In this document: positions 3,501-63,300 of the stretch, piece after piece
Layout of the letters: the number at the start of each line of letters is the position of its first letter
Position numbering within the stretch: position 1 is the stretch's first letter
Sequence record: NZ_CP088228.1
Reading direction: 5' to 3' (one strand)
DNA: 64,000 bases
From: a plasmid
Notes under the pieces: generated by a model
Database searches by the model: none
What the model was told of the DNA's origin: nothing
What the model saw: the letters and a program-made list of their open reading frames with translations, nothing else
Program-made: the position numbers and the translations under genes

Positions 3501-3673
3501 GTTTCGTGCCAGCTGCCCACTTCCAGATTCCAATGTTCGGCTGGCATTCTCTCAATCCTGTAACCCTCTGTCCTGCATTGTCCTCTTCAGGACAAAAAAA
3601 ACGGCAGGGTGACATCTTATCCCTGCCGTCAAAACTAATCGCTTAATTTTTCGGCGATTATAATGTATTGTTT

Positions 3674-3689
3674 TGTGATGTAAATCACA
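3674..3689. promoter_or_regulatory. CRP-like binding site
   Basis: tgtgatgtaaatcaca = TGTGA-N6-TCACA perfect half-sites in AT-rich region upstream of repeat B1. Confidence 0.35.
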
Positions 3690-3743
3690 TTTTTATTTAA
3701 TGTGAAATTTTCCCTTCGCTTTATATCTCCCGTAAGAAATTAC

Positions 3744-13260: not shown

Positions 13261-13389
13261 GCAGCATAAAGCGTGGATATACCTGGTAAGAAAGAGCACC
13301 TGCCCGGTATAATCGACGTGGCGCTTGAGGCTTTTTGCCTCATGACGTGAAGGTGGTTTGTTGCCGTGTTGTGTGGCAGAAAGCAGAAA

Positions 13390-13455
13390 GCCCCGTAGTT
13401 AATTTTCATTAACCCACGAGGCCCCCTGTATGTCTCAACAACAACAGTATGGCCT
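13390..13455 (-). ncRNA. sok: Putative Sok-like antisense RNA
   Basis: Inferred from hok/sok family organisation (antisense to hok leader at mok start); not independently visible. Confidence 0.3.
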
Positions 13456-13645
13456 CTTACCGTGCTTAATGCAAGGAGGAGTAAACCATGAAACTGCCGC
13501 GAAACGCCCTTATCTGGTGCGTATTAATCGTGTGTATAACGCTCTTAATATTCACATGCCTGACCCGGAACCGCTTATGCGAACTCCGGCTAAAGGACGG
13601 GGACAGGGAGGTCGCGGCAAGCCTGGCTTACGAATCCAACGGTAA
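13430..13645 (+). CDS. mok: Mok-like overlapping reading frame
   Basis: 71-aa ORF overlapping hok in another frame, as in hok/mok/sok loci. Confidence 0.4.
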
Positions 13646-21358: not shown

Positions 21359-21409
21359 GGGTCATGGGACAATTGCGCCCGCGTAAAGGGGTCCGCTTGG
21401 AAAACGGAA

Positions 21410-22736
21410 TCTATGGTCACTCCCGTTTTTGCAACACCGATTTTGACGACAAGTTGGCTTGCTTGAATCTATCCGGCGTCTGAATGGGATTTTATTCCCG
21501 CGCCTTGATGAGTTCCGCGCCTGATGAACCTCCAGAAAATATACGGCTTCAATGAGCCTTTCCGTTTTACAGGTTCCTCAACAGGCCGGTGGGCCGTTAG
21601 TATCATCAATATCAGTATTCGCAAAACCAGATCAGTAATTCTTTAAACCGGTGTATTTCTGCCGTTATGCTACATAAGTTTGCTGTCGTGCCGTTAGGGC
21701 CCAGGCTATTCTGGCCAGCTTGTTTGCCAGAGCACAAGTGACGACAAAGTTGCTTTTCCGGCACAGTAAATCCCTGACCCAATCGGCCAATTTGCCAGAC
21801 TGGTGTTCCAGTTTTTGTATGAATACCCTGGCACATTGAACCAACAAAGTTCGGATCTTTTTATTACCTCGCTTACTAATTCCCAGCAATGTCGTCCTAC
21901 CTCCCGTGCTGTACTGCCGAGGTACAAGCCCTGTTGCCGCCGCAAAGTCACGGCTGCTGGCGTACTGCTTCCCGTCGCCAATCTCAGTTGAAATAGTACT
22001 CGCTGTCAGTGTTCCGACGCAGGGAATGCTCAGCAAGCGCTGTCCAACCTCATCTTCGTCCAACTTTCGTTTCAACTGGGATTCCAAATCTTTAATCTGC
22101 TCAACAAGATAGTGATAATGCTGTTGTAATTTCAGCAATAACTGGCTGAGGTAAAGAGGCAAACTATTATCCTCAAGAATGGTACTCAGTCGGCTAATAA
22201 CGGCAGCTCCTCGGGGAACGCTAATGCCAAATTCCAGCAGAAAAGCATGCATTTGATTGGTTGTTTTTACCTTATCCTGAACCAGGGATTCACGGACACG
22301 ATGCAGAGCCCGCATTGCCTGCTGAGATTCCGTTCTGGGCTGCACAAAACGCATAGACGGACGCGATGCAGCTTCACAAATAGCTTCGGCGTCGACAAAG
22401 TCGTTTTTATTGCTTTTAACGAACGGGCGGACAAATTGTGGTGATATCAGCTTTGGGGAATGCCCCAACTCTTCCAACTTGCGTGCCATAAAGTGAGAAC
22501 CGCCACAGGCTTCCATTGCGATGGTTGTAGCGGGGCATGTCGCCAAAAATTCGATCAACTTTGGCCGGGTAAATTTTTTACGGTAAACAGCCTTCCCGCG
22601 ACGATCCTGGCAATGAATATGGAAAGAGTTTTTACCCAGATCGATACCAATGAGCGCAATGTTTTCCATGATAGTTCTCCGAATGAAAGCCTGTCCTCAG
22701 CATAGTACCGGGAAGGAGGGAGTGACCATCTCATTA
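21410..22736 (-). mobile_element. IS5075/IS4321-like IS110-family element (1327 bp) inserted in transposon IR
   Basis: Exactly 1327 bp between the two IR parts; identical inverted copy at 30494-31820; this family is known to target Tn21-family IRs. Confidence 0.8.
21665..22669 (-). CDS. IS110-family transposase (334 aa)
   Basis: MENIALIGIDLGKNSFHIHCQD... DEDD-type IS110 transposase N-terminus. Confidence 0.85.
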   Translation of the reverse strand: MENIALIGIDLGKNSFHIHCQDRRGKAVYRKKFTRPKLIEFLATCPATTIAMEACGGSHFMARKLEELGHSPKLISPQFVRPFVKSNKNDFVDAEAICEAASRPSMRFVQPRTESQQAMRALHRVRESLVQDKVKTTNQMHAFLLEFGISVPRGAAVISRLSTILEDNSLPLYLSQLLLKLQQHYHYLVEQIKDLESQLKRKLDEDEVGQRLLSIPCVGTLTASTISTEIGDGKQYASSRDFAAATGLVPRQYSTGGRTTLLGISKRGNKKIRTLLVQCARVFIQKLEHQSGKLADWVRDLLCRKSNFVVTCALANKLARIAWALTARQQTYVA

Positions 22737-22747
22737 AATATCCTACG

Positions 22748-25732
22748 CTAAGCCTCTTTTTTGTACAGACTGACATCAACTGTGCGTAACGGTCGATATT
22801 TACCGGATCCCAGCTTAAGATTATTACGCCAGATGTAATCTCCGCTCAGGTTGATATGCTCCCAGCCCAGAGGGGACAGGTGAGAAACCAACGGCTCATT
22901 AATCTGGAGCCCCTTTCGTTTTAGTGATTCGATGGCCCTTTCTATATACACCGTGTTCCACAACGTGATCGCCGCAGTCAACAGCGTCAGCCCGCTGGCG
23001 CGATAGCTTTGATTTTCCAGCCCCCTGTCTCTTATTTCGCCCAACCGGTGCATAAAAACGGCCCGCGCAAGCGCATTGCGGGCTTCACCCTTATTTAAAC
23101 CGGCTTGCACACGACGACGCAGGGCCGGATCGCGAAACCAGTCCAGCATAAACAACGTTCGCTCGATACGGCCAATTTCCCGTAACGCTTTTGCCAGGCC
23201 GTTTTGTTTGGGGTAGCTGGCCAACTTTTTTAACATCAGCGAGGCGGTTACCGTGCCCTGCTTGATCGAGGTCGCCAGGCGCAGTACCTCATTCCAGTGT
23301 GTCTCAATTTCTTTGAGATTCAGACTGGTCGTGGATATGATTGACTGAAGCCCAGAATATTTTTCCGCCTTTCCATGAATGAATAGCCGTTTGTCATGGA
23401 GATCCCGGATCCTTGGTGCAAATGCAAACCCAAGTAGATGCATTAGCGCAAAAACATGTTCAGTGAAACCCGCTGTATCGGTGTAATGCTCCGTAATTTC
23501 CAGGTCGCTTTCGTGATAGAGCAACCCATCCAGCACATGGGTAGAGTCCCTGACCCGGCTGATCACTTTGGTATAAAATGGGCTGTATTGGTCTGATATA
23601 TGTGTATAAACCTGCACGCCGGGTTCCTGACCGTACTTTAAATTCACCTGTCCGGCATAGCGGCCATGACTTCCGACTCGAAAATTCTGGCCGTCGGAGG
23701 ATGACGTTGTACCGTCCCCCCATGATGCTGCCAGTGGGCACTTTTTTTGTGCATTCACTAGTTCGGCAAGCGCGGCTGCATACGTTTCATCCCTGATGTA
23801 CCATGCCTGAATGCTTTCCAGCGACGCTTTTGTGGTTCCCGGGCAGGATTCTGCCATTTTAGTCAGCCCCAGGTTGATACCATCTGCCAGGATGGTGGTC
23901 AGCAACAGCTTTTTGTCTTTTGGTCTGACGTGATTATTTTTGAGGTGAGTAAAGTGGCGGGTAAATCCCGTCCAACTGTCCACTTCATCTAATATCTCGG
24001 TAATTTTTGGGTGCGGCAGCATGCCGTAAACCAGGTCGGCAAACGGTGATACAATCGAAGGAACGCTGTTATCAAGAGGCGTGACCTTCACACCTTTGTC
24101 CGATATATCAACATCAGGCAAATCACCGGCAATCGCCATCGCATTGACCTCTTCCAGTCGCGACGCCAGCAGTGTCATACGGGAGTGAAGGTATTCCTGG
24201 CAGTCTGTCGGAATGGCAAGCTGTAACTGTTTCTCTTTGAGTGATTTTTCAAAATCAGCAGGAGGAATGAGGTAATCGTCAAAATTCCTGTAGCGTCGTG
24301 ATCCTCTAACCCAGATATCACCAGATCGCAATGCGCCTTTCAGCTCATTCAGTACACAGAATTCATAATACCGGCGATCGATACCCGATGGCGTTATTAC
24401 CAACTTTTTCCAGCTCTCAGGGATAAACTTTACTGGCGCTGTTGACGGAACCTTGCGGAGTTGTTTGCGGTACATTTCTCTGACGGTATCCAGCGCATCA
24501 CCGAGTGGCAGTGCTGAAGGGGCTGCACTGAACTGCAATGCAGACAACATACGGGGCGCATATTTACGCAGCGTGCTGTATTTTTCGGTGATCAGATGAA
24601 GCGGATCAAAATTATCCTTTCGGGCCAGAAACTGTGTTTCCTCCAGACTGGTGATAAATTCCGGCCAGGGAAGTACGTCTTCTATCGCCGCCCAGGGATC
24701 TTCTCCTGACTCCCGTGCGTTTAGCAGCGCCTGCCCAACAGTAAGATATTGCCTTAACTTGCTCTGGATGAGTTTTCCTGTTTTCTGAAGCCGTTCGGCT
24801 TGTGTGCGCTTTGCCCTGCTGAACAAGCTACCCAGGATACGTTCGTGTAGTTCGATGATTTCATCGGTAAGCGTTGCCCTTGCTTCTGAGATAATACAAA
24901 CCAGCACGGCATAACGACGTGTGCCGGAGAATTTTGCCAGGTCCCTGCTACTCATTTTCCGGCCTTCGCGAGCCAGTTTCAGCAGTCGGTTCTGGTGAAC
25001 GGAAAGCGTAATACCTTCCGGCAGTGCCAACCCCTCAATGGCATTCAACCGATCAATATGTTGCAGCACGTTTTTACCGTTAATCTTACCCGGGGGCTGA
25101 AGCAGCCAGGCAAGACGGGAAAGTTGCTCATCACCTGATGCAAGCAGATTATCCAGTGCTGTTTTATGTCGTTGTTCCAGTTGCGTCGTCAGTGTAGAAA
25201 ATACGGCTCTGTCTGCAAGTGTTGCGGCTTCAGCAAGGGTTCGCTCCATCACATCAACGGAAGGGAAAATAACGTTGTTGTTGTGCAACCAAGCGAGCAT
25301 CTCTTCAGCAAGAATCAGGCCTTTGTCGGTCCGCATGGCGTGCGGATATAAATGGCGGATGCATGTTTTTTGCAATGACCTGTTGAAAGGCACTAATCCC
25401 AAGTAGCGATAGAGTTCGGCAAGATGCTCCCAACGGGTTTCCTCCCTCGTTGCGTACTCTCGCCATAAATCAGGTTGAAGTTTCAATCTCTCTGCCACTC
25501 TGGACATAACGCCATCGTGAGGGAGACTGTTTTTGTCTGGAGTAAAACCCGGCCCTCGCAGATAACAGAGTAAAACGGCAAAGCCCAGGCGGTTAGCGGG
25601 TCTCCGGTGTTTGTTGATGAGGACCAGATCCTGCTCACTTAAAAAGCACATCCTGGTTAGCAGAATGTCATCATCCGGCACAATCAGTAAGCGTTCTTTT
25701 TCATCACTGCTCAGTATCTGTCGCCGTGGCAT
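22748..25732 (-). CDS. tnpA: Tn3-family transposase TnpA (994 aa)
   Basis: Size and sequence of Tn21/Tn3 TnpA; stop codon lies within inner IR. Confidence 0.9.
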   Translation of the reverse strand: MPRRQILSSDEKERLLIVPDDDILLTRMCFLSEQDLVLINKHRRPANRLGFAVLLCYLRGPGFTPDKNSLPHDGVMSRVAERLKLQPDLWREYATREETRWEHLAELYRYLGLVPFNRSLQKTCIRHLYPHAMRTDKGLILAEEMLAWLHNNNVIFPSVDVMERTLAEAATLADRAVFSTLTTQLEQRHKTALDNLLASGDEQLSRLAWLLQPPGKINGKNVLQHIDRLNAIEGLALPEGITLSVHQNRLLKLAREGRKMSSRDLAKFSGTRRYAVLVCIISEARATLTDEIIELHERILGSLFSRAKRTQAERLQKTGKLIQSKLRQYLTVGQALLNARESGEDPWAAIEDVLPWPEFITSLEETQFLARKDNFDPLHLITEKYSTLRKYAPRMLSALQFSAAPSALPLGDALDTVREMYRKQLRKVPSTAPVKFIPESWKKLVITPSGIDRRYYEFCVLNELKGALRSGDIWVRGSRRYRNFDDYLIPPADFEKSLKEKQLQLAIPTDCQEYLHSRMTLLASRLEEVNAMAIAGDLPDVDISDKGVKVTPLDNSVPSIVSPFADLVYGMLPHPKITEILDEVDSWTGFTRHFTHLKNNHVRPKDKKLLLTTILADGINLGLTKMAESCPGTTKASLESIQAWYIRDETYAAALAELVNAQKKCPLAASWGDGTTSSSDGQNFRVGSHGRYAGQVNLKYGQEPGVQVYTHISDQYSPFYTKVISRVRDSTHVLDGLLYHESDLEITEHYTDTAGFTEHVFALMHLLGFAFAPRIRDLHDKRLFIHGKAEKYSGLQSIISTTSLNLKEIETHWNEVLRLATSIKQGTVTASLMLKKLASYPKQNGLAKALREIGRIERTLFMLDWFRDPALRRRVQAGLNKGEARNALARAVFMHRLGEIRDRGLENQSYRASGLTLLTAAITLWNTVYIERAIESLKRKGLQINEPLVSHLSPLGWEHINLSGDYIWRNNLKLGSGKYRPLRTVDVSLYKKEA

Positions 25733-29968: not shown

Positions 29969-30493
29969 GCGTATCGCTGTTTAGGCATGCCCTATATGAG
30001 GCCAGACACTTCCTTGGTTTATATAGAAAAAAGGTGAGGGGCAAATAAAAAATAAGGAGGTTATTTGTTAAAAAAATAGCATATAGAGATTTAGTAAAAG
30101 GTGTATATAGCCTTAGTGATATTTTCTTTTTACTAAAAGTTTTCGTAAAAACAAAAAAATTCACTGATGCTAGCCCGAAATTAAAATGGATAATTATATT
30201 TCTATTGGCTTAACATGGGGAATACTTATCTCGCTGCGAATGCCGTAGTTAATCCAGCGATACGTGACTGACGGTGAGTAATTGGTAGCATTATATCTTT
30301 CATTTTACCCTCCCATTACTGGGGATCCCTCAGTAATAGGTGGTCTTTCGTCTCCGCTTCCTTGGTATATGCAAACTTGATACGGGCACGATGAGCTATC
30401 AACATACTCGTGAGGTAGTATTGGTGATTTTTTAGCTATCACCATAGACCCGTGAAGCAATCTGTACGAAAAACAGGCTTAGCGTAGGATATT

Positions 30494-31820
30494 TAATGAG
30501 ATGGTCACTCCCTCCTTCCCGGTACTATGCTGAGGACAGGCTTTCATTCGGAGAACTATCATGGAAAACATTGCGCTCATTGGTATCGATCTGGGTAAAA
30601 ACTCTTTCCATATTCATTGCCAGGATCGTCGCGGGAAGGCTGTTTACCGTAAAAAATTTACCCGGCCAAAGTTGATCGAATTTTTGGCGACATGCCCCGC
30701 TACAACCATCGCAATGGAAGCCTGTGGCGGTTCTCACTTTATGGCACGCAAGTTGGAAGAGTTGGGGCATTCCCCAAAGCTGATATCACCACAATTTGTC
30801 CGCCCGTTCGTTAAAAGCAATAAAAACGACTTTGTCGACGCCGAAGCTATTTGTGAAGCTGCATCGCGTCCGTCTATGCGTTTTGTGCAGCCCAGAACGG
30901 AATCTCAGCAGGCAATGCGGGCTCTGCATCGTGTCCGTGAATCCCTGGTTCAGGATAAGGTAAAAACAACCAATCAAATGCATGCTTTTCTGCTGGAATT
31001 TGGCATTAGCGTTCCCCGAGGAGCTGCCGTTATTAGCCGACTGAGTACCATTCTTGAGGATAATAGTTTGCCTCTTTACCTCAGCCAGTTATTGCTGAAA
31101 TTACAACAGCATTATCACTATCTTGTTGAGCAGATTAAAGATTTGGAATCCCAGTTGAAACGAAAGTTGGACGAAGATGAGGTTGGACAGCGCTTGCTGA
31201 GCATTCCCTGCGTCGGAACACTGACAGCGAGTACTATTTCAACTGAGATTGGCGACGGGAAGCAGTACGCCAGCAGCCGTGACTTTGCGGCGGCAACAGG
31301 GCTTGTACCTCGGCAGTACAGCACGGGAGGTAGGACGACATTGCTGGGAATTAGTAAGCGAGGTAATAAAAAGATCCGAACTTTGTTGGTTCAATGTGCC
31401 AGGGTATTCATACAAAAACTGGAACACCAGTCTGGCAAATTGGCCGATTGGGTCAGGGATTTACTGTGCCGGAAAAGCAACTTTGTCGTCACTTGTGCTC
31501 TGGCAAACAAGCTGGCCAGAATAGCCTGGGCCCTAACGGCACGACAGCAAACTTATGTAGCATAACGGCAGAAATACACCGGTTTAAAGAATTACTGATC
31601 TGGTTTTGCGAATACTGATATTGATGATACTAACGGCCCACCGGCCTGTTGAGGAACCTGTAAAACGGAAAGGCTCATTGAAGCCGTATATTTTCTGGAG
31701 GTTCATCAGGCGCGGAACTCATCAAGGCGCGGGAATAAAATCCCATTCAGACGCCGGATAGATTCAAGCAAGCCAACTTGTCGTCAAAATCGGTGTTGCA
31801 AAAACGGGAGTGACCATAGA
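30494..31820 (+). mobile_element. IS5075/IS4321-like IS110-family element (second, inverted copy)
   Basis: Identical to 21410-22736 in opposite orientation, inserted in the other transposon IR. Confidence 0.8.
30561..31565 (+). CDS. IS110-family transposase (334 aa)
   Basis: Identical protein to 21665-22669. Confidence 0.85.
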   Translation: MENIALIGIDLGKNSFHIHCQDRRGKAVYRKKFTRPKLIEFLATCPATTIAMEACGGSHFMARKLEELGHSPKLISPQFVRPFVKSNKNDFVDAEAICEAASRPSMRFVQPRTESQQAMRALHRVRESLVQDKVKTTNQMHAFLLEFGISVPRGAAVISRLSTILEDNSLPLYLSQLLLKLQQHYHYLVEQIKDLESQLKRKLDEDEVGQRLLSIPCVGTLTASTISTEIGDGKQYASSRDFAAATGLVPRQYSTGGRTTLLGISKRGNKKIRTLLVQCARVFIQKLEHQSGKLADWVRDLLCRKSNFVVTCALANKLARIAWALTARQQTYVA

Positions 31821-31847
31821 TTCCGTTTTCCAAGCGGACCCCAGACA

Positions 31848-32630
31848 ATGAAAGCAAAAAAATTAGCCGCATTAATAGTTACAACATACATTAGCTTTAG
31901 TTCAACGGCACACGCTTCAGCACCTCAGCCGGTATTCAGCCCGGAACAGGAAGCTCGTATCGGCGAAATCGCTGCCGACTATCTGGTATCTCACCCGGAG
32001 ATTCTGGTGACCGTCAGTAATAAGCTGCAGGAACAGCAGGAAACACGTAAGCAGAAGATGTTTGCACTCAACGTCATGGAGAATCAGGCGAACCTTCTGC
32101 ATGATCCGGACACCCCGGCTTACGGGCCTGATACTGCAAAGGTCGCGGTGATTGAATTCTTTGATTACCAGTGCGTGTTCTGCAGCCGCTTCGCGCCGGA
32201 ACTGGAGAAGGTCATGAAAGCGCAGCCGGACGTCCGCTACCTCTTTAAGGAGTGGCCAATATTTGGTGGTCGCTGGGAAGCTTCACTTCAGGCTGCACAG
32301 CAGGGGCTGACGGTCTGGCAACAGAAAGGGCCGCAGGCCTATGTCACCTATCACAATGCCATCTACGCCACCGGCCATAATGAAGGCAAGCTGACGGCAG
32401 AGGATATACTCGCGGCAGCGTCAAAGGCAGGGCTGGCCGCCTCTGTGCCGGGCGACCATACCGCGTCCCTTGAGAAAAACAGTAACCTGGCAGAGGAACT
32501 GGGGCTCACCGGAACGCCGGGGATCGTCGTCATGCCCGTTAGCGGGGCGACTCCCGACACCATCACGGTTTTCCCGGAAGCCGTAACCGCTGACAGACTA
32601 CAGGCCGCGATAAGAAAAGCCTCCCGGTGA
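31848..32630 (+). CDS. DsbA/DsbG-like periplasmic thiol:disulfide oxidoreductase (260 aa)
   Basis: Signal peptide, thioredoxin-fold CXXC (FDYQCVFCSRF). Confidence 0.7.
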   Translation: MKAKKLAALIVTTYISFSSTAHASAPQPVFSPEQEARIGEIAADYLVSHPEILVTVSNKLQEQQETRKQKMFALNVMENQANLLHDPDTPAYGPDTAKVAVIEFFDYQCVFCSRFAPELEKVMKAQPDVRYLFKEWPIFGGRWEASLQAAQQGLTVWQQKGPQAYVTYHNAIYATGHNEGKLTAEDILAAASKAGLAASVPGDHTASLEKNSNLAEELGLTGTPGIVVMPVSGATPDTITVFPEAVTADRLQAAIRKASR

Positions 32631-32766
32631 CAATGACCCTCACTCGTATTTTCAGCGGAATGGCTTCGTGATGCCGTGTTGAGCGCAGTCAAATCATAAG
32701 GGTCAAATTGCAGTTGGACTAAATTTAGGCTATATTAAGTCCTGATTTAACGACAAGGCTCCCACA

Positions 32767-32994
32767 ATGAAAGTTGAAACAATCTCTTTCGTCAAAAAAA
32801 ATGCAGCATCCCTGGACCTCTCGGAACCGATTCTGGTTACCCAGAATGGTGTACCAGCTTACGTTATTGAGTCCTATGACCAGCAACAGGAGCGGGAAAA
32901 TGCCATAGCACTTCTTAAACTGCTGACGCTATCTGAACAGGACAGAGCGGAAGGAAAAGTGCTTACCAGAGGTCAGTTGCTTGAGGGATTGTAA
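32767..32994 (+). CDS. Type II antitoxin (RelB/ParD/Phd-like, 75 aa)
   Basis: Small ORF directly upstream of ParE/RelE-like toxin. Confidence 0.55.
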
Positions 32995-33020
32995 GGACGC
33001 TTTCCGCTTAAGGTGAAAAA

Positions 33021-33356
33021 ATGGAAAAAAAAGTCGTTAAAATTGAATACACGGAAACAGTGAAAATTTGCCTGTCAGAGATCGCATCTCACCTTACACA
33101 TTCAGACGTTGTCCCTGCTCCCGTCCTGGCCGAAATACTGGATCAGTATGAGCAGCGCGTGAGTCTCTACCCCTATGGCTGTCAGAGTTGTCCGGAACTG
33201 CTTAAAATGGGTGTCTCAAAATATCGTGAATGTAATACGGCAAACGGATACCGCGTCATTTACTCTGCAGAAGATTCTGTCGTCACGACACACGCGATAC
33301 TTGCGCACAAACAGGATATTAAGCAACTCTTGTTCAGACGCCTTATCAAGGCCTGA
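33021..33356 (+). CDS. ParE/RelE-family toxin (111 aa)
   Basis: Size, pairing and sequence character of plasmid-stabilisation ParE/RelE proteins. Confidence 0.55.
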   Translation: MEKKVVKIEYTETVKICLSEIASHLTHSDVVPAPVLAEILDQYEQRVSLYPYGCQSCPELLKMGVSKYRECNTANGYRVIYSAEDSVVTTHAILAHKQDIKQLLFRRLIKA

Positions 33357-34123: not shown

Positions 34124-34891
34124 CTATTTTTCCGACATTTGCATTTTATCGCGGAAAGTCAGATAGCCTACCAGACTGAGAATGGCTAGCAAAAACAGAA
34201 TACTTGTACCCGTCGCGCCCAGACCAATCCCCCCGTTCCCGGGAGGCTGCGACAGCAAATCACCGCAGGAAGCCCCGAAGGGGCGCGTCAGAATATAGGC
34301 AATCCAGAAACAGAGCACGTTGTTTGCCCTGAACAGATAAAAAGCCGCCGCCGTCAGCCCAATCAGAGCGCCGAACAGTGCTGCGGCATTCAGATAGCCA
34401 AGATCCATGCCTTCCGCCAGCCAGTCACCCGCGGCGGTACCCAGAGAAAAGGTAAAAAGTATGGCCACCCAGTAGAACATCTCGCGTTTACGGGTGGTGA
34501 TACTATGAATTGACAGGGTTTTCTCTTCGTTATGCCAGAGTACGAAAGTCAGGATCAGCAGCGAACCAAACACCCCACTGGATAAAGAAAGAGGTACGCT
34601 GAAATGGTCTGTCAGGTTGTCCGTCAGCAGCGTGCCGAACACACTGATGAGCAGTACCGTCAGCCAGTAAAGCGCCGGCACATAGCGCGTCGCGCGCATC
34701 TGGAATACAAGGACAACCACAAATAAAAAACAGGTCAGCAGGGTGGTGTAAGTCAAGCCCCAGCCGAGATCCATGTTTAAATAATCGGCGAAGGTTTAAC
34801 CTACGGTGGTGGACATCATTTTGATGAGCCAGAAGAAAAAGGTGACTTCCGGCACCTTACTGAGCCCTGTGGTTCTGGAGTGAGTCATCAT
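34124..34891 (-). pseudogene. Membrane protein gene interrupted by in-frame TAA (possible pseudogene)
   Basis: ATGATG at 34891 opens a frame encoding 31 aa, TAA at 34796-34798, then the same frame continues through ATG 34774 for 216 aa of polytopic membrane protein. Confidence 0.5.
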
Positions 34892-35133
34892 TTTGCAGCC
34901 CTGTTCAGCAGTGTGATGAGTTCACTCTACGGACGCCAGATTAGCTCTACCTTAGGAAAGCAGCTTATCTTCTTGGATATGACGATCTCCTGACACAGGC
35001 CTGACGTGTAGCCAGCCAGGGATGACCGCATCGCTCAGGGTTCACAGCAGCAGGAGAAGGATTACGGACCGGTAAGAGGAGGCTCAGGGAGATGGCCACT
35101 CAGGATAATAACGGAGTGAACGGGCGCCCGGAT

Positions 35134-35418
35134 TTATCTGTTCCAGAGCAGATCCAGTATTGCGAGACCTTCGCCCTCATGAAAAAGTGACAGGACAGCC
35201 TTCACTATCATGACGGTAATAATTAATACCAGCAACGGATTCATGTGCATATGGTCACCTGCCAGACGGTCCCTGAGCTGACACAATGTATCAGAAAAGA
35301 GATCCCCCGATCGGCCAGTAAGCACAACGGGATAATCAGAGTCACATTTTGTCTTCATCGTAAATGCGATGACACCCGTCCGTACTGAACCCGGCAGGTT
35401 TATGATGGACGGCTCCAT
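35134..35418 (-). CDS. Small ORF downstream of mcr (possible wbuC-like cupin remnant)
   Basis: 94-aa ORF; identity not established. Confidence 0.3.
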   Translation of the reverse strand: MEPSIINLPGSVRTGVIAFTMKTKCDSDYPVVLTGRSGDLFSDTLCQLRDRLAGDHMHMNPLLVLIITVMIVKAVLSLFHEGEGLAILDLLWNR

Positions 35419-35622
35419 CCGTCAGGATAATGCAGACGGCAGGCATCCGGTATGACGCCAGGTACAGAGATACTACGGGCCCGCGCGCTGGCCGAGAGGC
35501 AACCGGTCATTCTGCCGCCCGAAGGTACCAGAAACGGGGATCCGTTTTGTAAGGTTTATCCACAGGAACCGGGGATAAGGGTGTGGGTAAGCGCGGCGAT
35601 GTATGTCAGACAGGTCGACTCA

Positions 35623-35652
35623 GGTAAAAAAATGCCTGCTTCGGGAGCAGGC
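35623..35652 (-). terminator. Rho-independent terminator of mcr gene
   Basis: Minus strand gcctgctcccgaagcaggcattttttt. Confidence 0.65.
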
Positions 35653-35744
35653 AAACAGGCGCTGACGGCATGCACGCCGTCAGCAAAATTTTATAATTTC
35701 CGGCAGCAGGCTGTTTGTTTCCGGAAATCGACCGAGTATGTAGG

Positions 35745-37364
35745 CTATCCACGACATTCGCGGAACAGGTCGCTTTCCGGAAGATAGGCCCCGGTGGTGA
35801 TGTCCCAGAGCCCCAGTACGGACGCGAAAAGGTTATCGTGGGAATATGTCCTGTTAACGGCATTATGCTGCAGACACGCGGCGTTAATATTTTTAGCAGC
35901 AATGAAGCCTGGCGACATCCAGAGCTGCATCGGGATGTGCGTCTGCTGATCCGGTGCCAGTTTGTAGGGGGTACCGTGCAGATACAGTCCGCTCTCTCCC
36001 AGAGATTCGCCGTGATCGGACACATACAGCAGTACGGTGTTGTACTGTTCGCTGTATTGCTTAAGCTTTTCAATCATCTGCGCTAACACATAGTCGGTGT
36101 GGCGAATGGTATTGTCGTAGGTATTAACCAGCTGTTCCTGCGTGCAGTTTTCGATATCGCTGCGCGCACATTCCGGCATGAAGTGACGATGCTCTGCCGG
36201 ATAACGCTGGTAATAGGTCGGTCCATGGCTGCCAATCATATGGAAGGCGATCAGCTTGTCTCCGGCCATTTTGCCGATTTCGGTATCCAGGTTTTCCAGC
36301 ATAACATCGTCATAGCAGGTTTTACCGTCACACAGTTTTTTACTGATACCGGGATTAATTTCGACAGTCGGGATACGGCTGCATACGCCTTTACACCCGC
36401 CATCGTTTTCTTTCCACAACAGCGAAACCCCCGTTTTCTGCACGATGTCGAGGACATTTTCACTGCCGGCAGCCTTTTTACCATCGTAATCCGTCCGGTT
36501 CATATCCGAGAACATACAGGGCACCGAGACTGCGGTCGCCGTGCCACAGGAACGCATATTCCTGAACGAAATAACGCCATCGATTTTGCTGGTAAAGGCA
36601 TTTGTGTCACGCGGGTAGCCGTTCATGGAGAAATTCTGGCTCCGTGCCGTTTCGCCAATTACCAGGAACATCAGCGTGGGTTTACCATTCCGGGTAACGC
36701 GCCTTGCATCATCCCCCAGCGTCCGGAAAGGCATTTTCGTCGTAAAATAGGTATCCTTCACGTAATGGAAAGTGCTGTACGCATAGTTTGCCGGGATAAT
36801 TTCTTTGTTCAGCGTCGGGTTATTGCGCCCGACAGAAGCATAATCCTGGTAATACAGAGCGGCAACACCTGCAATCAGGATCAGCGAAGCGAGCATGGAA
36901 AGCAGCCGGTGGGCAACCCCTTTGTACCATTTGTCTGCATATTCAATTTTAATCAAAAACAACAGGATAGCCGGAAGAATGCCCATGAAGACCAGCCACA
37001 GCACCAGTGAGCCATTCAGGTAGGCATGCGCTTCCTGTGGGTTTGTTTCCAGTATATTTTCGATCATGGACTGATCAAACATCACTTTATATTTCAGTGT
37101 GGCGTAACTCACCACCGAACCGGTGACCAGCAACAGGGCAAAGAAGGGTTTGAGCAGGTAGCGAACCGAGAAGGGCATAAACACAAAGTTAAGCGCTGCA
37201 ACCAGCACAAACGGAATGGAGATGACGAACCCCGCCCTCACATGTTCAAGACGGCTCAGGATATCGTAGAAATGCAGCAACACCGGCCAGTTAAGTAAGA
37301 ATGCAAAAACGAGTGCCAGAAGTAAAACCAAGGGGATTACCCTCATCCTGAAAAGTACGGGCAT
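35745..37364 (-). CDS. mcr-10: MCR-9/MCR-10-lineage phosphoethanolamine-lipid A transferase (539 aa); xerC adjacency fits the mcr-10 context
   Basis: N-terminus MPVLFRMRVIPLVLLLALVFAFLLNWPVLLHFYDILSRLEHV and full-length EptA/MCR architecture (5 TM + sulfatase domain with conserved Thr/His/Cys); tyrosine recombinase gene immediately upstream. Confidence 0.7.
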   Translation of the reverse strand: MPVLFRMRVIPLVLLLALVFAFLLNWPVLLHFYDILSRLEHVRAGFVISIPFVLVAALNFVFMPFSVRYLLKPFFALLLVTGSVVSYATLKYKVMFDQSMIENILETNPQEAHAYLNGSLVLWLVFMGILPAILLFLIKIEYADKWYKGVAHRLLSMLASLILIAGVAALYYQDYASVGRNNPTLNKEIIPANYAYSTFHYVKDTYFTTKMPFRTLGDDARRVTRNGKPTLMFLVIGETARSQNFSMNGYPRDTNAFTSKIDGVISFRNMRSCGTATAVSVPCMFSDMNRTDYDGKKAAGSENVLDIVQKTGVSLLWKENDGGCKGVCSRIPTVEINPGISKKLCDGKTCYDDVMLENLDTEIGKMAGDKLIAFHMIGSHGPTYYQRYPAEHRHFMPECARSDIENCTQEQLVNTYDNTIRHTDYVLAQMIEKLKQYSEQYNTVLLYVSDHGESLGESGLYLHGTPYKLAPDQQTHIPMQLWMSPGFIAAKNINAACLQHNAVNRTYSHDNLFASVLGLWDITTGAYLPESDLFRECRG

Positions 37365-37700
37365 TACGATCTCCATCAATAATATGTCCCCGCCCGGGGT
37401 CACAGGTTGCACCAGAAAAAGGGCAACAGGTTATCAGACCCGGCGGTTCCTAAGCGAAACTATTTTTTAATGACTAGTACCCAATCAGTGAGTTATCTCT
37501 GGTACCCGGCCTGAGTCGCCGGTAGCGGTATTGGGATACAAAGCGGAGCAGCCAGCTGGCCGTTTACCGAAGGGAAAAGATGAAGACGTCCTTCAGACTG
37601 CGCAACAGGGGAAGCAGCGTAGTCCGGAGTTCCGCCTCCTCTGTTCAGACAGTACCGGATATGACAGCAGCACGGCTGCCACCGGCATTACTGTTACGGT

Positions 37701-37717
37701 TTCTTGTTAAGTTATTA
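37701..37717. other. Perfect palindrome ttaagttattaacttaa between xerC-like gene and mcr
   Basis: Seen directly 14 bp from recombinase stop codon. Confidence 0.4.
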
Positions 37718-37730
37718 ACTTAATATGATA

Positions 37731-38807
37731 TTAAATGTCAGTCAGATTCAGGCGATCGCGGGCCGTGCGCAGGCGCGCTTCGCCGCGGCGATCGTACTGC
37801 TGGGTGGTGGTGACGCTGGCATGCCCCATCGCGTCCTTTACCGTGATGAGATCCTCGCCATTATCGAGCATGGCGGTGGCAAAAGTTCGCCTTAAATCGT
37901 GCGGGGCACATTTTGTAACCCCCGCCTGGCGCTGGCGGACCTGCAGGACGTGATACACCGCCTGGTCGGTCAGCCGGTCGTTCGTCAGGGTGTCAAAGCG
38001 GCGGATACGGGTGAACAACGGCCCGTCTTTTTCTCCCCGCACGTCATCGATCCACGTCCTTAGCCGCTGCCAGGTGCCCGCCGGCATATAGGCCAACCGC
38101 TCCTTGTTTCCCTTACCCAGCACCCGGAGCGCCCGCTCATCTGTGACAACGTCACGCAAATCCAGCCCTACCGCCTCTGACCGGCGCAGGCCGCAGCCGA
38201 GAATGACGGCCAGCATTGCCGCATCGCGTACCCCGATGCTGGAGTCATCGGCCTCGCAGGCACCAAACAGCGCCCGTATCTCCTCCGGCGGCAGGGCCCG
38301 GCCGCGCGGCAGGCGGCTGCCCCTAAGGTTACGCACCGCCCGGATGTGCTGGAAGCTCTCGACGTCCATGAGTTTCAGCATCCAGGCTTCCTTCGCCACC
38401 CCCTTGAGTGCCGAAAGATAGGTGTTGACGGTCGCCGTGGCCCGGCCGGTGTCGCGCAGGAGCTCGGTCACGGCCATAACGTGATGACGGCGCAGGCTGC
38501 CCCAGCTGCAGGACTCCAGGGACGCGGCGCCGAGCATGCCGGCAACAATACCGAGGAACGAGGCCATGGTCTGCCGGCTGCGGGGGGAATTGAGGGAAAG
38601 CAGGTAGGCCCGGGCGGGACCGACCGGGCTTTCAGTACCAACCAGCGCCGGCAGGAAATCCACATCAAGCGGAATGACCGCCGGTGGCGGGAGCTGCTCG
38701 GGTTCATCGTCAGGCATCAGTGTCATCCGGGGCTCCGTCCGGGCCGGAAAGCGTCCGGCGCGCTGCGTGAAAAATCGGGGAAAAGTATACGCCAGAGCGT
38801 ACCGCAT
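37731..38807 (-). CDS. xerC: XerC/XerD-family tyrosine site-specific recombinase
   Basis: C-terminal HDLRRTFATAMLDNGEDLITVKDAMGHASVTTTQQY catalytic region; N-terminal extent uncertain. Confidence 0.8.
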   Translation of the reverse strand: MRYALAYTFPRFFTQRAGRFPARTEPRMTLMPDDEPEQLPPPAVIPLDVDFLPALVGTESPVGPARAYLLSLNSPRSRQTMASFLGIVAGMLGAASLESCSWGSLRRHHVMAVTELLRDTGRATATVNTYLSALKGVAKEAWMLKLMDVESFQHIRAVRNLRGSRLPRGRALPPEEIRALFGACEADDSSIGVRDAAMLAVILGCGLRRSEAVGLDLRDVVTDERALRVLGKGNKERLAYMPAGTWQRLRTWIDDVRGEKDGPLFTRIRRFDTLTNDRLTDQAVYHVLQVRQRQAGVTKCAPHDLRRTFATAMLDNGEDLITVKDAMGHASVTTTQQYDRRGEARLRTARDRLNLTDI

Positions 38808-39031
38808 AGAGTCTACTTTCTCAAACGTACATTTTAATAAGTAGATAAAGCAGCTATCTCGCCTTGATACTGGTGGTATTGCTCTTTACGAAACCTAGTC
38901 CGTTCCCTTAGCGGAAATGCTTATAGTTCCTTTGGATTGCTCGGCGCTGTGCTGGCTTTAGCCGTAACGAATATGACGAATGACGTCTTTTTCAAAGTGG
39001 GCCAGATAACCCTGATTGGCCTTTCCGCTAA

Positions 39032-40227
<1,196 letters not shown>

Positions 40228-53739: not shown

Positions 53740-56200
<2,461 letters not shown>

Positions 56201-57023
56201 TTAGCATACATGTTGATGTATCGGCCAGAGGTAGCCGCTCTCTGCCCTTCAGGATCAATAACTGTCTTATTTACCTTGTCCTCAATTCCGAACAGAAATT
56301 TTCACTTATGGTCAGTGCTGAATCCTTTGGTGAACTCAGGTTGTTCAGGTATCCGGATGGAACCCTTTTTAACACTTTCTACCGCAGCAACGGTGATCCA
56401 CTTGAAGGTGTGATGAAAACGCTCTGGGAAATGGAGATGGAAATTACCGATACACCAGTGGTGCGGTTTGAACATCGCTGAGCAAAATTAAGGTGACCCC
56501 GGATGGGGTCGCTGTTAAATTGCTTTGTTGTTAATAATTAATTTGAATTGCGATATTTACAGCAATAATCCACTCATCACAACAATTCACTCTTTTTTGT
56601 GCTTATCCTGCAATAATCTCTCTCTTCCTCTCCTGAGATCCGAAAAGATGTTGTTCCGGATCTTCCGGAACAGCCCCGGCGCGCAGCGGCCTAAAAACAC
56701 AATATGTGCTACGCCATAGGCTGATTTTTCTTCTATATATAGTGTTTACCCCCTTCCCTGCGACCCTTCGTGCAGGGGCAGATATTGCCGCTTTGTTTAT
56801 TCCCTCACCGTGTTACACTTCCGGAAAGTTGTTATATGACGGAAAGTCGGATCTGCCGGAAACGGGTATCCGGTAATTTAATGGCGTGGTTATATGGCTG
56901 CTTATTATCTTTCTGGTGATATTCATGGCAGGAAAAATAAGCAGGGGAATATTCAGGTGGGTGACTGATGCAGTCCTGTGCGCAGTCAGTTGTGCTGCAC
57001 ATAATAATTACTCTGAGTGACTA

Positions 57024-59351: not shown

Positions 59352-59410
59352 ATGATTAAGATAGCAAGATAGTAATTTATTATCTTGCTATCTTATTAAG
59401 TTATTAAATT
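59352..59410. repeat. Short direct/inverted repeats flanking partition operon
   Basis: gatagcaagatag / atcttgctatctt motifs. Confidence 0.5.
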
Positions 59411-59411
59411 A

Positions 59412-59717
59412 TTATTTTAATCTAGATTTTTCAATGAGTTGAGATATTTCTTCTCGCGATAAATTTTCTAACGCCATCACTGCAGCTCTAACTACATCTG
59501 ATCTATTGACTCTCCTGTTCCCTGATAACATCTCTTCCCTTATGACATTATCAATTGAGCTAAGATTCTCTTCAGCAAGAGAGATGCTGACTGGTTTTGC
59601 TTTACTAGTCGCAGGTTTATTACTTGGTTCGTCAAGATTTTTTGCAGTAAGGCCAGCTGAACCTCCATTTATAAACGAAGCTTCATCCTTTGGCGGCGTA
59701 TGTGCTCTATTTCTCAC
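59412..59717 (-). CDS. ParG-like RHH centromere-binding protein (101 aa)
   Basis: Small basic protein with C-terminal RHH-like SDVVRAAVMALENL, downstream of small ParA. Confidence 0.55.
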   Translation of the reverse strand: MRNRAHTPPKDEASFINGGSAGLTAKNLDEPSNKPATSKAKPVSISLAEENLSSIDNVIREEMLSGNRRVNRSDVVRAAVMALENLSREEISQLIEKSRLK

Positions 59718-60349: not shown

Positions 60350-60560
60350 ACCTTGTTTGTTATCTTATTAAGATAATAGGATAGCAAACATTAATTTTCA
60401 ATATGCGCTGGAGTTGATATTTTGTTATCATGCTAACTTAATATGTTAGCAACTACATTAAATTCAATTGATTAGAATGTAACACTACCATCTTGCGATA
60501 TTAATAAGATATTACGATAACAAGATGCTATCTTGTTATCGTAATCGCACTTTTGAGTGA
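60350..60560. repeat. Centromere/operator-like repeats upstream of partition operon
   Basis: Repeated ttatcttattaagataata, gatgctatcttgttatcg, ttgttatcgtaatcg motifs. Confidence 0.5.
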
Positions 60561-60572
60561 AGGAGTAAAGCA

Positions 60573-62230: not shown

Positions 62231-63300
<1,070 letters not shown>

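Follow-up and report, generated by a model that had tools for sequence, protein, structure and literature searches.

Gene content of the mcr-10.1 locus

The stretch of DNA analysed here, hereafter called the window, comprises 64,000 nucleotides (nt) of the plasmid record NZ_CP088228.1 and carries mcr-10.1, a gene for resistance to colistin, on its minus strand (coding sequence 35745-37364). This gene lies downstream of another gene of the same strand, published as 'xerC', which encodes a Xer-like tyrosine recombinase of 331 amino acids (aa) (37731-38726; the longest open reading frame, or ORF, reaches 38807), and the gap between the two is 366 nt. A 17-bp perfect palindrome is found within this gap (37707-37723), and a candidate core recombination site of 34 bp stands upstream of the recombinase gene (38812-38845).

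The coding sequence was compared with mcr-10.1 of pMCR10_090065 (WP_023332837.1), and found to be identical over its entire length, at the nucleotide (1620/1620) as well as at the protein level (539/539). Its product, a 539-aa phosphoethanolamine--lipid A transferase, scored 1316.9 bits against the MCR-10 model (NCBIfam NF033862, cutoff 1250), and stayed below the family cutoffs for MCR-9 (1110 versus 1240 bits), MCR-13 and MCR-3. An earlier note on this DNA had placed the 539-aa transferase in the MCR-9/10 lineage; this was borne out, the protein being exactly MCR-10.1. The start coordinate given there for the region, 35134, belongs to an unrelated 94-aa ORF and not to mcr-10. Motifs GETAR, HMIGSHGP and SDHGES were found at residues 237, 375 and 449, respectively, and from what is known of MCR-1 and EptA we take them to provide the nucleophilic Thr and the metal binding residues. 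Domains PF08019 and PF00884 are on record for a protein identical to MCR-10.1 of the window. As judged from these matches, the transferase is a member of the MCR-10 family with an apparently intact sulfatase-type catalytic domain.

The gene has its own intrinsic terminator, as had been noticed before. A terminator scan located it at 35633-35653, on the minus strand, as a stem-loop GCCTGCTCCCGAAGCAGGC followed by T7, with a fold energy of -15.5 kcal/mol (z = -2.2), and reported a second hairpin nearby, at 35661-35684. Together with the gene and 154 nt upstream of it, the terminator forms a conserved 'mcr-10 unit' (35629-37518, minus strand). The G+C content is 50% for mcr-10 and 65% for the recombinase gene. 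No RNA family was found in an Rfam search of the mcr-10 locus.

The neighbourhood of mcr-10 and a recombinase is not new, and matches the published context, as the earlier note had stated. In its first description, mcr-10 was reported beside a 'XerC-type' recombinase, and the idea of mobilisation was put forward (Wang et al. 2020, PMC7067168); a conserved order xerC-mcr-10.1-orf336-orf177, with variable insertion sequence (IS) elements on both sides, followed in 2022 (PMC9431528). Our finding of this locus is a rediscovery, since the pairing has been published since 2020, in dozens of papers. The window matches pMCR10_090065 exactly in the sequences of mcr-10.1 and of the recombinase, and has the same gene order and spacing. 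At least 44 PLSDB plasmid records contain the recombinase-mcr-10 block, at 97-100% identity, and the recombinase was directly upstream in all of the ten best-covered public contigs with the exact MCR-10.1. According to the literature, cloned mcr-10 raises the minimum inhibitory concentration of colistin 4-fold, and many carriers are susceptible. The mcr-10.1 locus itself is ordinary and already known.

One further occurrence was met during these comparisons, in DAINBV010000097.1, a contig of a metagenome-assembled genome binned as Geobacteraceae, whose recombinase-mcr-10.1 block is 99.8% identical to that of Enterobacter plasmids. It is almost certainly a mis-binned plasmid fragment.

The recombinase belongs to plasmid backbones

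The recombinase of the window and WP_032676104.1, called 'XerC' in papers on mcr-10, are the same protein. It matched PF00589 with an E value of 1.2e-31, over model positions 3-167 of 172, and residues R181, K205, H276, R279, H302 and Y311 were all found in the expected motifs, so that the protein can be described, by its motifs, as a tyrosine recombinase with a complete catalytic domain. With 148.4 bits against the XerC model (TIGR02224, cutoff 335) and 130.7 bits against the XerD model (TIGR02225, cutoff 330), both equivalog cutoffs were missed, and orthology to XerC or XerD was rejected; XerD was its best relative among solved tyrosine recombinases (79 bits). An integron integrase was rejected likewise (71 bits against TIGR02249, cutoff 265; ∼28% identity to IntI1). 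When the earlier note placed mcr-10 directly downstream of a XerC/D recombinase, it was therefore correct on the adjacent tyrosine recombinase, but not on its being XerC or XerD.

Related genes were found in plasmids lacking mcr-10. In four mcr-free Enterobacter IncFIB/IncFII plasmids, p12379_2, FDAARGOS_523 unnamed2, p704SK10_1 and OW849361.1, the gene order is traI, dsbA, a hypothetical gene with a YafO toxin gene, and the recombinase. In the mcr-10 lineage the same slot reads dsbA, Phd/RelE, a hypothetical gene, a DUF347 protein gene, mcr-10 and the recombinase. The left side of this slot is made up in the window by dsbA followed by a Phd/YefM-RelE toxin-antitoxin pair (31848-33356, plus strand), according to the annotation of a 99.9%-identical stretch of pEk72-1. 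Homology of the window to the mcr-free plasmids is restricted to two segments, namely dsbA (31842-32621, ∼91%), where it ends at 32621, and 37702-39032 (∼88%), which includes the recombinase gene. The family is large: among the best-scoring 5,000 plasmid records, 1,681 encode a recombinase at least 60% identical to that of the window, only 42 of them at 99% or more, and the members from IncC plasmids are 62.6% identical to it. By these comparisons, the recombinase is a backbone gene of Enterobacter F-type plasmids, many of them mcr-free.

A single candidate recombination site upstream of the recombinase

The candidate site (38812-38845) has the 13-8-13 structure TCTACTTTCTCAA-ACGTACAT-TTTAATAAGTAGA, that is, two arms of 13 bp, complementary at 10 of 13 positions, on either side of an 8-bp spacer, and is placed 85 nt upstream of the recombinase ATG. 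It was present upstream of the recombinase in every family member examined, IncC included; the two arms are conserved in these relatives, which differ mainly at two positions of the spacer. A search among 72,556 plasmid records yielded 2,187 occurrences in 2,159 of them, about one per plasmid. The site is single-copy in the 64-kb window, where the best other match reached 16/24 (null expectation 16-17), and in each locus examined. A recombinase gene with one 13-8-13 site nearby fits the layout of a plasmid multimer-resolution system, and plasmid maintenance of this kind is most likely the native role of the pair.

The IncC plasmid pSNE3-1928 has the 34-bp site at 3665-3698, and both arms have the same sequence as in the mcr-free Enterobacter plasmids. 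Two small ORFs separate the site from the 62.6%-identical recombinase, which follows 1.2 kb downstream. From this, the recombinase-site system would seem to belong to the IncC backbone.

A 32-bp 'attL' upstream of xerC had been proposed in 2022, and overlaps the 34-bp site (PMC9769640). The 9-bp 'IR-2' of the same study maps at 2416 in LR890193.1, ∼370 bp inside the end of homology (2046) with an mcr-free plasmid, and was not relied on.

Dif-like sites, which the earlier note had proposed to look for on the flanks of mcr-10, are absent: both strands of the window were searched in full for dif, cer, psi and pdif, with spacers of 6-8 nt, and the matches were no better than in shuffled sequence. 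For dif, the best one in 64 kb was 15/22, as in the shuffles, and cer, psi and pdif gave isolated matches of 16-18/22 far from the locus. Direct or inverted repeats bracketing 34700-39100 were searched as well, and only short pairs at chance level were found.

These results bear on the common reading of the literature, in which the recombinase and mcr-10 form a cassette that is excised as a circle and integrates through two flanking attachment sites, with the palindrome or dif-like sites serving as one of them. Papers do propose XerC-mediated integration, the two genes are always adjacent, and at one boundary of the block the 34-bp site shows the behaviour of an attachment site. No partner was found for this site, however, either in the window or in any locus examined, the next matches being at chance level, nor are there dif-, cer-, psi- or pdif-like sites in the window. 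The palindrome is placed between the recombinase and mcr-10 and not outside of them, so that recombination at the palindrome would split one from the other. Downstream, the block ends are IS truncations at differing places, and the recombinase with its site occupies a fixed backbone position in thousands of plasmids without mcr-10. With one credible site, present once in 64 kb, a discrete excisable Xer module is not what we see in this plasmid, and we regard such a cassette as quite improbable. The note's proposal that a Xer-mediated module is plausible can be kept in part, in that spread linked to the recombinase is plausible, but mcr-10 is not bracketed by two sites.

Five distal flanks join the block at the 34-bp site

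When the window was compared to the mcr-free plasmids p12379_2 and p704SK10_1, identity was ∼88% on the recombinase side of the 34-bp site, and 100% on the distal side. The latter segment, or type-A distal flank (38846-39032), is backbone DNA which ends at an ISKpn26 element. The same step in identity at the 34-bp site was observed between pEk72-1, which is an mcr-10 plasmid, and the mcr-free OW849361.1. Two substitutions mark the mcr-10 lineage, one in the arm (38820) and one in the spacer (38826), and their positions place the crossover of the flank A and flank B hybrids within 38827-38841.

More generally, public mcr-10.1 loci have a single proximal arm, spacer, recombinase and mcr-10 in common, and beyond them comes one of five distal flanks (A to E) that are unrelated to each other. 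Each distal flank carries its own variant of the distal arm (TCTACTT, TCTGCTT or TTTACTT), and flanks A, B, C and E are native in mcr-free plasmids, where each adjoins a 34-bp site of its own. The IncFIIK backbone retains its native site as a relic, next to which no recombinase is annotated. On the downstream side, the common recombinase-mcr-10 block ends by IS truncations, at 35273, 35528 and other positions. In most plasmids, ISEc36 or IS26 removes the downstream stretch of the published locus, whereas the window keeps it in full (orf336, orf177, DUF347, toxin-antitoxin and dsbA). The window joins this full stretch to the type-A distal flank, and coverage of 35000-39200 by any single PLSDB record is 92% at most.

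Could such junctions arise with an inert recombinase? In that case, mcr-10 would have landed beside a backbone gene, and the pair would have been moved by IS elements (ISEc36, IS26, ISKpn26, IS903B) and by homologous recombination among F-type plasmids. The block is indeed IS-bounded in most plasmids, with ISKpn26 at 306 nt from the recombinase in the present one; the left part of the window is 100% identical to the backbone of pEk72-1, suggesting vertical descent and IS traffic; and activity of the recombinase is predicted from its sequence. The junctions are nevertheless difficult to explain in this way, as the points where five different distal flanks meet the block all fall in one 34-bp stretch, none of them at an IS end, and each distal-arm variant moves with its flank. 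Moreover, the step from ∼88% to 100% identity is sharp in two backbones, while homologous exchange in 88%-identical DNA should scatter breakpoints over the gene. Passive transport of the two genes is in our view unlikely.

We consider instead that the spread of the mcr-10.1 locus is probably explained by exchange between plasmids, mediated by the recombinase at its single site. The self-contained mcr-10 unit (promoter region, gene and terminator, 35629-37518) occupies a variable slot downstream of the recombinase gene. In a first step, the sites of two co-resident plasmids would recombine, so that the plasmids are fused; in a second step, an event elsewhere, either IS-mediated or homologous, would separate them again. 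As an outcome, the recombinase gene, along with all that lies downstream and thus with mcr-10, would be attached to a new plasmid arm. Exchange of arms at the site would make the recombinase the only gene always linked to mcr-10, and would keep its upstream junction always in the same place. With a second event that is separate from the first, the downstream end of the block would be ragged and bounded by IS elements. The palindrome is not needed in such an exchange.

This proposal draws on what was obtained by sequence comparison, namely the identity of the allele, the status of the recombinase as a backbone gene, the conservation and single copy of the site, and the breakpoints at this site in the five types of flanks. 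It supposes in addition that the recombinase cuts the 34-bp site, that it has a role in multimer resolution, and that the exchange proceeds in two steps.

Several points weigh against single-site exchange. Our literature searches gave no experiment on excision, recombination or multimer resolution by this family of recombinases. As all mcr-10.1 loci share one ancestor, five junctions correspond to five events, and not to many. The second event, which has to complete the exchange, is documented in no case. Homologous recombination that ends at the last shared bases is conceivable, and is disfavoured by the fact that the five junctions fall within the same ∼15 bp. Finally, the recombinase allele of the window turned up in no mcr-free plasmid.

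The palindrome between the two genes

The 17-bp palindrome TTAAGTTATTAACTTAA (37707-37723) is perfect, as the earlier note had described, but it starts 7 nt past the recombinase stop codon (37731-37733) and not 14. Six perfect palindromes of such size were counted in the window, for about 2 expected from Markov shuffles. A function as a recombination or terminator site, also suggested by the note, found no support. On the recombinase-sense RNA the hairpin is weak (-2.5 kcal/mol, z = 0) and has no U-tract, so that a terminator was rejected, and the closest mcr-free relatives have TTAACTTGTTATCTTAA in this place, which is not a palindrome. A part of the mcr-10 promoter was rejected as well, the palindrome being 342 nt upstream of the ATG and outside the unit in common with an Enterobacter asburiae variant, described below. 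In an mcr-10.2 plasmid, the palindrome is unchanged and neighbouring bases differ, which is not significant given the ∼3% divergence.

Homology to the mcr-free plasmids stops at 37702, so that the palindrome sits where the conserved recombinase module ends on its downstream side. The 26 nt that begin there (37702-37727) were found to match sequences 22 kb away, around a par locus which encodes ParA (211 aa) and a 101-aa protein: 22 of 26 positions match at 59391-59416, and 20 of 26 at 60420-60445, both within repeat arrays of the locus. Among 5,000 random regions of matched composition, not one scored as high as 22/26. In the mcr-free relatives, the equivalent stretches also resemble the par arrays (18/22), and the parA promoter contains a further perfect palindrome of 17 bp that is built in the same way, TTATCTTATTAAGATAA (60360-60376). 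The palindrome thus looks, by resemblance, like one member of a family of AT-rich repeats that is also present around the par locus.

It is possible, if rather doubtful, that the palindrome is a protein-binding element, or the relic of one, related to the centromere or operator repeats of par, and neither a recombination nor a termination signal. The matches to the par arrays (22/26 and 20/26), the sister palindrome TTATCTTATTAAGATAA and the 18/22 resemblance in the relatives speak for it. All these sequences are AT-rich, however, and the null model may be too simple; in addition, the palindrome is not kept as such in relatives, no binding protein was assigned, and some mcr-10 plasmids lack the par locus.

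As to the locus itself, AT-rich repeat arrays lie on both of its sides (59352-59425 and 60350-60565), with motifs ATCTTG(C/T)TATC in inverted pairs. This layout resembles that of a small partition locus flanked on either side by centromere-like sites.

Relatives and origin of mcr-10

MCR-10.1 is 79-84% identical, over its full length, to MCR-9 and to the chromosomal MCR-B of Buttiauxella. It belongs to the same clade, with the two-domain architecture PF08019 + PF00884 in common, but nucleotide homology to mcr-9 and to the Buttiauxella genes is confined to 35746-37378, that is, the coding sequence, and neither the flanks nor the recombinase are shared. In a synteny check of Buttiauxella chromosomes, no recombinase was found nearby and the coding sequence alone was homologous. 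By the same type of check, the DUF347 gene is a neighbour of mcr-like genes only in Buttiauxella sp. B2 and Aeromonas.

A closer relative was found in Enterobacter asburiae. MBL5839266.1, 91% identical, is encoded in a P4-like island of a 683-kb chromosomal contig (GCA_016771715.1, JAENNA010000002.1, 8847-10753). What this variant has in common with the window is limited to 35629-37518 (90% at the nucleotide level), and no recombinase adjoins it, indicating that mcr-10 is, at least as a sequence unit, independent of the recombinase.

This variant falls below the similarity of the named MCR-10 alleles met in this analysis, and could represent a lineage of its own within the mcr-9/10 clade. It sits in a genomic island and not at an obvious native locus. 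A search for a closer progenitor in 5.8 billion proteins gave none between 84% and 90% identity. Reconstruction of the 'empty site' failed also, no mcr-free plasmid being found with either the same recombinase allele or the segment 33360-35744.

Insertion sequences and wider plasmid context

The ISKpn26 element that ends the type-A flank (39033-40227, minus strand; 39027-40227 when taken as a copy of the inverted repeat) belongs to the IS5 family, as recognised with the NCBIfam model of IS5-family transposases, and the same element is annotated in two of the records compared. It starts 306 nt upstream of the recombinase ATG; pSL12517-mcr10.1 and pEC27-2 likewise have ISKpn26 upstream of the recombinase. 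The statement of the earlier note that no IS flanks mcr-10 directly thus holds for the immediate neighbours of the gene, but not much further, with ISKpn26 at this distance from the recombinase and the end of an IS110-family element at 31842. A second copy of ISKpn26 is found in inverted orientation at 55005-56205 (1201-nt repeat, 100% identity). The two copies bracket 14.8 kb, including genes for a BetT-like transporter, cytochrome b562 and cation efflux, and an inversion between them is possible.

Two inverted copies of the IS110-family element (21388-22772 and 30458-31842), 1385 bp long and 100% identical, bracket a region with a Tn3-family transposase, and this ensemble replaces 1.4 kb of traI-remnant DNA of pEk72-1. 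The adjacent segment 19930-21387 corresponds to the traM region of pEk72-1, at 100% identity.

The DUF347 membrane-protein gene, 'orf768' of the literature (34124-34891, minus strand; PF03988, E = 5e-47), has undergone a nonsense change at position 34798, where the window has A and pEk72-1 has C, which turns a GAA codon of the coding strand into TAA. All that is left is a 216-aa ORF that begins at an internal ATG.

The plasmid is of the F type, with RepE (IncFIA) at 62231-62986 and a ParB-like gene of the leading region. A sok antitoxin RNA was identified at 13319-13490 on the plus strand (Rfam RF01794, 97.8 bits), and its presence indicates a hok/sok locus of post-segregational killing. A second tyrosine recombinase, unrelated to the first (257 aa, PF00589; 58578-59351, plus strand), adjoins the par locus near RepE, and may be the plasmid's resolvase, of the ResD kind of F.

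Implications and comparison with known systems

Surveillance papers repeat that 'XerC' mobilises mcr-10, with no defined sites. The present comparison suggests a different picture, in which the recombinase is an ordinary backbone enzyme, no excisable cassette exists in this plasmid, and movement takes place through one 34-bp site and a second, unrelated event. What is added to the known locus is this sharper and testable view of the recombinase and its single site. A broader idea, which we advance tentatively and with a little less than even confidence, is that the 'xerC' of mcr-10 plasmids stands for a large uncharacterised system, consisting of one recombinase and one 13-8-13 site each, in ∼3% of sequenced plasmids (IncC, Enterobacter, Klebsiella, E. 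coli F-types and others). Beside its presumed role in maintenance, this system would provide a fixed crossover point at which plasmid arms are swapped between unrelated backbones. If this is true, the 34-bp site could be a general hot spot for the mosaicism of Enterobacterales plasmids, those of IncC included.

The closest parallels in organisation are Cre/loxP of P1, ResD/rfsF of F and Rsd/crs of Salmonella virulence plasmids, which likewise consist of one recombinase gene and one core site nearby. The site described here is loxP-like in its 13-8-13 structure, and occupies a backbone position beside maintenance genes. It differs from these systems in that no close sequence relationship exists, and resolution is in the present case deduced from the sequence.

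A resistance gene next to a Xer-like recombinase, as in the window, is also found in the IMEX elements that carry blaIMI/NMC-A in Enterobacter, and in the pdif modules of Acinetobacter plasmids. Papers on mcr-10 cite them as an analogy (PMC7067168). These elements, however, are bounded by dif-like 11-6-11 sites and depend on the XerC and XerD of the host, whereas the site found here is 13-8-13, with other arms, and the recombinase is encoded by the plasmid.

As for the junctions, a likeness is provided by the res-site hybrids among transposons of the Tn21/Tn3 families and plasmids, which are mosaics of two lineages with sharp switches of identity exactly at the recombination site, as observed at the 34-bp site. 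The Tn21/Tn3 hybrids involve serine resolvases and a res site of three subsites, while the junctions of the mcr-10.1 locus fall in a single inverted-repeat core, next to the gene of a tyrosine recombinase.

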